A stretch of 64,000 nt of DNA from Chloroflexota bacterium (lineage in GTDB: Bacteria > Chloroflexota > Dehalococcoidia > Lucifugimonadales > UBA3495): NCBI GenBank assembly GCA_028875655.1, contig JAPPCX010000069.1:13268-77267 (forward strand). The letters run 5' to 3'. The position numbers and the translations under genes are program-made. The notes below the pieces were generated by a model. That model was not told the origin of the DNA. It saw only the letters and a list, made by a program, of their open reading frames with translations, and searched no databases. Each line of letters starts with the position of its first letter. Positions within the stretch are counted from its first letter, which is position 1. Positions 17,742 through 18,236 of the stretch are shown piece after piece.

Positions 17742-18236
17742 TTACGATGGCCGGTTGCGGCGCTCTTCCTCGCGTTCTTCGGCCTTGTGGCGCAGGGGCC
17801 GGCCCTTGTCGGGGGTCGGGTCTTTCACCTCGCCGTAGATGGCGCGGCCTTCGTGATCTTCCGGAAGGTATTCTGTGATGGGCAGACCGCCCTCAGTTAC
17901 GAAGAGCAGTCAATGGCAGTACTTGTAGATCTGCATGTCGTCGCAGGCGCAGATCCAGGTGCGATGCTTGACCTCTTCCTCCTTGCTCGGGTAGAAGCGG
18001 CACGGGCAGAGCGGCCGTCCGATTTCGTCGACGTTCTGGGCCAGGCCCAGGATTACGGATTCCGCGATTCCCTCCTCCGGGTGGGTAAAGGTGCCGGATT
18101 TCTCGCAGTATCGCTCAACGAACAGACGCATCCGGTCGATTGCTTTTTGACTGGGCTGATCGGCCAATTGAATTCTCCTTGCGGCATTTCGTGTTCGGTA
18201 CGTCCGGTTGCTCCGGTGGCAGACCGTAACGGGCAC
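17742..18236 (-). CDS. Ferredoxin-thioredoxin reductase catalytic-subunit-like protein with an in-frame TGA (candidate selenocysteine) at 17910-17912
   Basis: CPCRFYPSKEEEVKHRTWICAC...YCH-TGA-LLFVTEGG aligns with the FTRc pattern CPCRHY..KE.EVK..W.CPC....CHCMLFLT. The frame stays open to a TAA at 17742-17744. The likely true start is the TTG at 18167, preceded by an AAGGAGA RBS. The ORF track stops at 17910. Confidence 0.65.
17880..17892 (-). promoter_or_regulatory. Candidate bacterial SECIS apical hairpin
   Basis: Minus strand GGGC-GGUCU-GCCC, with the loop starting 24 nt after the UGA. As I recall it, the GGUCU loop closed by a C-G pair resembles the E. coli fdhF SECIS apex. Confidence 0.4.

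Follow-up and report, generated by a model that had tools for sequence, protein, structure and literature searches.

Introduction

The catalytic subunit of ferredoxin:thioredoxin reductase (FTR), here called FTRc, reportedly binds a [4Fe-4S] cluster through Cys55, Cys74, Cys76 and Cys85 and carries a redox-active disulfide between Cys57 and Cys87, and in the structural work of Dai et al. from 2000 and 2007 Cys57 is said to be exposed to thioredoxin and Cys87 to contact the cluster in the one-electron intermediate. The idea of an FTR that contains selenocysteine (Sec) is not new, being preceded by the Global Ocean Sampling (GOS) study of 2008, in which a Sec-containing FTR was found in two reads, one of them with Sec at both redox positions (PMC2398784), and by NF041072, the "FtrB family double-selenoprotein" model. 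Two reviews list the Sec form as "CxU," and the 2026 review gives two Sec residues and cites NF041072. Here, we describe an FTRc gene in a 64,000-nucleotide stretch of contig JAPPCX010000069.1 (assembly GCA_028875655.1, a Chloroflexota bacterium; positions 13,268 to 77,267), a stretch that is referred to as the window throughout. The gene is interrupted by a TGA at codon 86, and comparison with its orthologs makes it very probable that it is a genuine selenoprotein gene, in which this UGA is decoded as Sec in an FTR-type [4Fe-4S] disulfide reductase of the SAR202 bacteria (Dehalococcoidia, Chloroflexota).

The described Sec-containing family resembles the window protein in several respects. 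Both are FTRc homologs predicted from marine metagenomes, both have a bacterial-type Sec insertion sequence (SECIS) predicted downstream of the UGA, and both have predicted Sec at the second position of the C-x-C motif matching Cys87 (CIU there and CHU here). The GOS sequences (JCVI_READ_1093012271142 and JCVI_READ_841845) read ...YCPU...CPC...FCIUMFF and differ from the window protein in having two Sec residues (CPU and CIU), a length of about 104 amino acids (aa) and no C-terminal extension. The double-Sec GOS sequence scored 187.5 bits against NF041072, for which the equivalog cutoff is 160 bits, and its identity with the window protein is 32%. For the latter and its Cys-containing orthologs, the scores were 43 to 47 bits (47 for the window), which is below that cutoff. 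The first redox position is Cys56 (TGC, 18000-18002) in the window and TGC/Cys in all orthologs, and codon 86 is the only one that is TGA. Membership in the NF041072 family was rejected, given 47 bits against the required 160 and one Sec instead of two. Because of these low scores and the Cys at the first redox position, we conclude from the sequences that the window protein is a member of a second FTRc subfamily with its own predicted replacement of Cys by Sec, at the cluster-proximal residue only. This would be a second, independently derived Sec form of FTR, and it is missed by NF041072, which is NCBI's only selenoprotein model for the FTR fold.

The FTRc proteins of cyanobacteria and plants (1DJ7, 2PVO, 2PUK and 7BZK) share with the window protein the FeThRed_B fold and the six-Cys pattern CPC...CxC...CHC and, by homology, the [4Fe-4S] cluster with its adjacent redox-active pair. 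They differ in having Cys at position 87 and different, shorter C termini, and their hosts differ from the one studied here, which is a nonphotosynthetic heterotroph. The cyanobacterial and plant enzyme is also a heterodimer with a variable subunit, which is confined to oxygenic phototrophs, while FTRC homologs without this subunit occur in nonphotosynthetic bacteria (PMC9025218).

Results and discussion

The gene and its product

The gene lies on the minus strand, where the frame reads ...PLCPCRFYPSKEEEVKHRTWICACDDMQIYKYCH, then TGA at 17910-17912, and continues as LLFVTEGGLPITEYLPEDHEGRAIYGEVKD... to a TAA at 17742-17744; the longer stretch after the TGA is LLFVTEGGLPITEYLPEDHEGR...RPS, up to the TAA. 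This frame had been proposed in a preliminary description of the locus, made from the sequence letters, which gave the product as 141 to 164 aa. The frame was found as proposed, and of the two extents the shorter one stood. The longer one, from a GTG at 18236, did not, since the sequence AAGGAG is located 7 nucleotides (nt) upstream of the TTG at 18167 and 78 of 81 orthologs have ATG, GTG or TTG at this codon. The true start is therefore almost certainly the TTG at 18167, which makes the product 141 aa long and the TGA codon 86. The features of the gene, in window coordinates, are as follows.

17742..18167, minus strand: full predicted selenoprotein coding sequence, FTR catalytic-subunit homolog with one Sec; 141 codons plus TAA (17742-17744), based on the PF02943 and PDB FTRc matches and the 141-aa orthologs

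18175..18180, minus strand: Shine-Dalgarno sequence AAGGAG, read from the sequence, 7 nt 5' of the TTG start (18165-18167)

17910..17912, minus strand: in-frame TGA, codon 86, predicted to be read as Sec; aligned with Cys87 of Synechocystis FTRc (the second Cys of CHC) and with the ortholog codons

18000..18008, minus strand: CPC motif, codons 54-56, with Cys54 predicted as a [4Fe-4S] ligand and Cys56, the counterpart of Cys57, as the redox partner of Sec86; from alignment to 1DJ7 and 7BZK and the roles that these residues are said to have there

17916..17951, minus strand: CAC...CH(U) region, codons 73-84, with the other predicted [4Fe-4S] ligands (Cys73, Cys75 and Cys84), from the PDB FTRc alignment; all three are invariant in the orthologs

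17745..17891, minus strand: C-terminal 49 residues (93-141), a lineage-specific extension; the PDB and Pfam alignments end at residue 92, and the segment is translated only on UGA read-through

The product belongs to the FTRc fold family. With Cys placed at codon 86, it matched Pfam PF02943 (FeThRed_B) with 78.5 bits (gathering cutoff, 22 bits; E = 4.6e-22), and FTRc chains in the PDB (7BZK, 1DJ7, 2PUK and others) matched with E values of 3e-23 to 1e-19. Residues 54, 56, 73, 75, 84 and 86 of the window protein align with residues 55, 57, 74, 76, 85 and 87 of the 1DJ7 chain, and the FTR pattern of Cys residues is complete when residue 86 is read as U, with CAC rather than CPC as the middle motif. 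The placement of the TGA at the Cys87 site, made earlier from the motif, agrees with this alignment and with the Cys found there in 15 full-length homologs. Nothing in the solved FTRc structures corresponds to the C-terminal 49 residues; the dN/dS ratio (nonsynonymous to synonymous substitutions) of codons 100 to 141 is 0.072 in the TGA forms.

A database search returned 2,470 homologs. Among the 120 matches listed, all but a few are 141 aa long, and those named for an organism come from Chloroflexi or the SAR202 cluster. The 15 homologs of 141 aa that were aligned have Cys at codon 86 and share 75 to 82% identity with the window protein, uniformly on both sides of the TGA and up to the final residue, so that the similarity of the segment after the TGA reaches the C terminus and the segment is conserved like the rest of the protein. 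These Cys-form proteins of SAR202/Dehalococcoidia (e.g., P0097 and P0106) are true orthologs, with the same length, start and C-terminal extension. What sets them apart is TGC or TGT at codon 86, the lack of the apical helix and GGUC loop described below, and synonymous sites that vary freely at codons 92 to 97.

For wider comparison, we used an ortholog panel of 80 loci from species-representative (GTDB) genomes, nearly all of them metagenome-assembled genomes (MAGs) of Dehalococcoidia/SAR202 and many of them complete long-read chromosomes. No conserved ferredoxin, thioredoxin, variable subunit or other partner was found among the gene neighbors across these 80 loci. As a separate observation on the protein, nine of the Sec-form orthologs (L002, L003, L007, L008, L009, L012, L015, L023 and L027) carry a further Cys, at residue 61 (RFYPCK), five positions past the CPC motif. 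This residue is D, S or N and never Cys in the 43 Cys forms, and it is Ser in the window.

Recurrence of the TGA and translation beyond it

A single substitution turns TGC or TGT into TGA, and the source of the window is a MAG, which are the grounds for suspecting a mistake in sequencing or assembly or a nonsense mutation of very recent origin. However, codon 86 is TGA at 37 of the 80 orthologous loci, each from a species representative, and TGC at 38 and TGT at 5, and the TGA forms include long-read complete chromosomes. Contig DAOUIJ010000050.1 of GCA_034423515.1 is 100% identical to the window over 20 kb, and five further contigs, obtained from different samples with different assemblers and 90 to 100% identical in their flanks, also keep the TGA (six contigs overall). 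The codon recurs across independent assemblies and strains, and an error or fresh mutation, which is exceedingly improbable, was counted as already refuted.

All TGA forms (n = 38) share the 141-codon frame, each with a single in-frame stop. The dN/dS ratio (pooled Nei-Gojobori) in the TGA forms is 0.062 upstream of the TGA versus 0.085 downstream, and it is 0.05 in the Cys forms. The FTR gene of strain L082 differs from that of the window at 7 nt, with 7 synonymous and 0 nonsynonymous differences. None of the orthologs simply ends at the position of the TGA: 37 species keep the TGA together with an intact downstream frame, and 43 have Cys. Since the TGA recurs, the frame is intact and dN/dS is low, sequencing error and pseudogene formation are excluded, and the TGA, judged by these comparisons, is neither. 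The codons beyond it are translated.

The same data bear on whether the TGA is a true stop, in which case the gene would encode an 85-residue truncated FTRc and the downstream 55 codons would be untranslated or a decaying remnant. Public collections do hold 124 distinct truncated products of 85 or 73 aa, other genes of the window end normally in TGA, and any inefficiency of read-through would probably leave some truncated product in vivo as well. On the other hand, the downstream frame is intact in 38 of 38 TGA forms with a dN/dS of 0.07 to 0.085, like that upstream, and the differences in L082 are all silent. There is no start codon 3' of the TGA, and a product that ended at the TGA would be missing one member of the redox-active pair. 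We regard a true stop as very unlikely.

A genome in which UGA is a sense codon throughout (of the code 4 or code 25 type) would also produce an in-frame TGA, and nothing beyond this TGA itself speaks for it. In the window, 21 of 54 open reading frames (ORFs) end in TGA as an ordinary stop, among them both flanking genes, which encode methionyl-tRNA synthetase (MetRS) and a major facilitator superfamily (MFS) transporter, both at full domain length. The FTR gene is the only TGA-interrupted coding frame within the 64 kb, and in the orthologs TGA is confined to one column, codon 86. The preliminary description had argued against genome-wide recoding from the neighboring stops, and these counts bear it out; such recoding has a negligible probability and was counted as already refuted. 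Two other TGA-interrupted candidates in the window were rejected, as they are adjacent genes that share a frame by chance.

Within the Sec clade, synonymous diversity is 0 to 0.16 at five of the seven codons from 79 to 85 (17913-17933, minus strand), compared with up to 0.55 in the Cys forms. Selection on the sequence context of the UGA, or an RNA structure that extends further, may account for this low diversity just 5' of the UGA.

A SECIS-like hairpin downstream of the UGA

A hairpin 18 to 37 nt 3' of the UGA could serve as the SECIS element, and a second, outer stem is possible.

17876..17895, minus strand: SECIS-like hairpin UGAGGGC-GGUCU-GCCC(A)UCA, with the apical GGGC/GCCC helix and the GGUCU loop at 17880-17892; the loop starts 21 nt after the UGA

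17872..17903, minus strand: possible lower stem UUCGUxA...UCACxGAA, partly paired in the window sequence and not specific to Sec forms

The apical part, GGGC-GGUCU-GCCC, had been pointed out earlier from the window alone. It is present, and the comparison adds that the apical helix and the GGUC loop are specific to TGA forms. A stem-loop 3' of the UGA is present in all TGA forms. The mean minimum free energy (MFE) of the region from +10 to +42 is -10.0 kcal/mol in the 38 TGA forms versus -4.6 kcal/mol in the 43 Cys forms (Mann-Whitney p = 3e-12, a value that overstates independence, as do the other p-values, since the Sec forms cluster phylogenetically). The full 4-bp apical helix, counted in a register-aware manner, is found in 32 of 38 TGA forms versus 1 of 43 Cys forms, and GGTC occurs in the loop in 35 of 38 versus 0 of 43. 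Synonymous diversity at codons 92 to 97 is 0 to 0.21 in the main TGA clade and 0.33 to 0.68 in the Cys forms, and outside these codons the difference between the two groups is far smaller. When pairs were counted on a hand-set structure, 80.6% of cells were paired, compared with 33 to 52% in controls with slid partners, and compensatory changes were seen at two pairs (C-G to U-A at columns 12/39 and G-C to U-A at columns 15/36). The hairpin is thus an RNA element that is under selection in the TGA forms.

In the SECIS of Escherichia coli fdhF, the hairpin likewise lies just 3' of the UGA within the coding sequence and has a GGUC(U) apical loop, the G-U of which is about 23 to 27 nt from the U of UGA, and the GGUCU loop of the window equals the fdhF apex. 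The window element differs in its shorter stem, in an A bulge on the 3' side where fdhF has a U bulge on the 5' side, in a loop 3 nt further from the UGA and in that its binding of SelB is putative.

The machinery for Sec is found in a related genome. SAR202 bin87 (MPNC01), whose largest contig is the TGA-form locus L031, is listed in Table S4 of Slaby et al. (2017; PMC5649159) with three SelA (COG1921), one SelB (COG3276) and one SelD (COG0709). In addition, the bacteria richest in selenoprotein genes in BSepDB (2026) include MAGs of Dehalococcoidia that have 46 and 49 of them. Because of the bin87 genes and these counts, we conclude that the lineage decodes Sec, and we infer the same for the window's own genome.

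Several results weigh against the decoding of UGA as Sec at this locus. A Pfam search of the 30 large ORFs of the 64-kb window found no SelA, SelB or SelD, and ARAGORN found no tRNA in the window and hence no tRNA-Sec there; nor did it find a tRNA-Sec in the 37 TGA-form loci. The window hairpin (MFE, -8.8 kcal/mol) is unremarkable when taken alone (z = -1.14), as 22 of 200 shuffled sequences fold as well, so its significance comes only from the comparison with the orthologs, where the covariation is weak and the phylogenetic clustering noted above applies. The lower stem is paired about equally in Cys and TGA forms (5.7 versus 5.9 of 7 pairs) and is for this reason probably a by-product of conserved codons. 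RNAalifold, run on the 38 TGA forms, gave no common structure and 2 pairs only, because the register of the apical helix differs among lineages. Rfam gave no matches in the whole window at gathering thresholds and, for 17700-18000 at E values up to 10, chance matches only and no SECIS family.

Another possibility is that UGA 86 is recoded to Cys or another standard amino acid, either by a dedicated tRNA with a UCA anticodon and a SelB-like factor or by near-cognate read-through that the hairpin promotes. For some bacteria, tRNAs of the tRNA-Sec type that insert Cys have been suggested, and Cys occupies the position in 43 of 80 orthologs. Moreover, the comparative evidence demonstrates translation and a selected RNA element and not the identity of the inserted residue. 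Against this stand the GGUC-type apical loop at the spacing of a SelB-dependent SECIS (as in fdhF), the SelA, SelB and SelD of the related TGA-form genome bin87 and the richness of the Dehalococcoidia in selenoproteins. There is also no obvious selective reason to exchange TGC for a costly recoding to the same residue, and yet TGA is found in at least 37 species. Recoding to a standard amino acid is, in our view, unlikely, though less so than a true stop.

Proposed mechanism

If UGA 86 is decoded as Sec, the hairpin, with its 4-bp apical helix and GGUCU loop, would recruit SelB and Sec-tRNA(Sec), and the ribosome would insert Sec86 and then translate 55 more codons to the TAA. By homology, Cys54, Cys73, Cys75 and Cys84 would hold the [4Fe-4S] cluster, and the resting enzyme would contain a Cys56-S-Se-Sec86 selenenylsulfide beside the cluster in place of the Cys57-Cys87 disulfide. 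An electron from ferredoxin would break this bond, and the exposed Cys56 would attack the disulfide of thioredoxin as the substrate. Sec86, in the role of Cys87, would be held transiently on a cluster iron in the one-electron intermediate and would then resolve the mixed disulfide. The enzyme would be a ferredoxin:thioredoxin reductase type with a single subunit. In this scheme, the incorporation of selenium, the dependence on SelB, the electron donor, the substrate and the Fe-Se intermediate are all predictions.

Sec only at the equivalent of Cys87 would mean that the catalytic cycle includes a Cys-S-Se-Sec bond and a [4Fe-4S] intermediate with an Fe-Se bond and that selenium tunes the chemistry of the cluster and not the nucleophilic attack on the substrate. 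With Sec at the [4Fe-4S]-contacting residue only, the protein would provide a natural system in which to study the role of selenium beside an iron-sulfur cluster.

Sec and Cys forms across the orthologs

In a neighbor-joining tree, the TGA forms fall into three lineages, a large clade of 35 sequences that includes the window, the singleton L039 and the trio L047, L052 and L079, which is nested among Cys forms. All three lineages fold better in the hairpin region than their respective Cys neighbors; the values for the trio are -5.4, -10.2 and -5.9 kcal/mol, versus -1.3 and -1.3 kcal/mol for its Cys neighbors L050 and L067. Two of the three lineages have differing SECIS variants, the loop of the trio being a GGAUU variant. 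This suggests that the trio represents an independent or very old acquisition of Sec. It is conceivable, although we hold this only tentatively, that the SAR202 FTRc subfamily placed Sec solely at the cluster-proximal equivalent of Cys87, maybe more than once, while Cys56 was kept. In the same tentative reading, the subfamily would be widespread and numerous among marine and sponge-associated bacteria that live aerobically, with all public gene calls examined cutting it short.

The hairpin of the trio (3256-3303; CHUMLF...) reads GGA(A/U)-GGA-UUCC and has U-A for G-C at one pair of the lower stem. The closely related Sec and Cys orthologs form a natural paired set for studying how a SECIS arises within a coding sequence.

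Annotation of the subfamily

Gene callers were expected to truncate the gene at 17910, and the public products are indeed 85 aa long. They form three clusters at 90% identity with 124 member sequences, and among those listed all are 85 or 73 aa; no full-length form containing U was found among the best matches listed in the homolog search. At least 124 distinct public proteins and 37 species-representative genomes thus carry an FTRc cut to 85 residues, which should in all likelihood be annotated as 141 aa with Sec86. The finding points to selenium-dependent redox control in SAR202, a group that is very abundant in the deep ocean and in sponges.

Other features of the window

A promoter and terminator scan of 17550-18400 found nothing. 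A GC-rich hairpin, GGGCCGCTC-ATCGG-GAGCGGCCC (17677-17699, minus strand), lies 3' of the TAA and was not called by the simple terminator scan, and the motif CCGCTCATCC occurs three times in the intergenic region (window 17620-17700, minus strand) that separates the convergent FTR and MFS genes.

The ORF at 10286-13210 (plus strand) encodes an MmeI-like fused restriction-modification enzyme of 974 aa that is absent in the sister strain L082 and fragmented in L083, and it constitutes a strain-variable insertion near the FTR gene. Two ORFs, at 26066-28279 (plus strand, 737 aa) and 59712-61115 (minus strand, 467 aa), had no Pfam match at E = 1e-5 or better. Several of the closest FTR loci are in sponge-derived MAGs (bin87 of Aplysina aerophoba and SB06xx bins), and the ORF at 1476-2648 (minus strand) encodes a 390-aa ankyrin-repeat protein (Pfam Ank_2, E = 4e-73), a protein type typical of sponge symbionts. 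Three paralogous family III coenzyme A (CoA)-transferase genes are located on the plus strand (38488-39768, 43700-44935 and 47070-48272) in a cluster that also holds a dehydratase-like gene (39803-41038) and a short-chain dehydrogenase gene (46098-47042).

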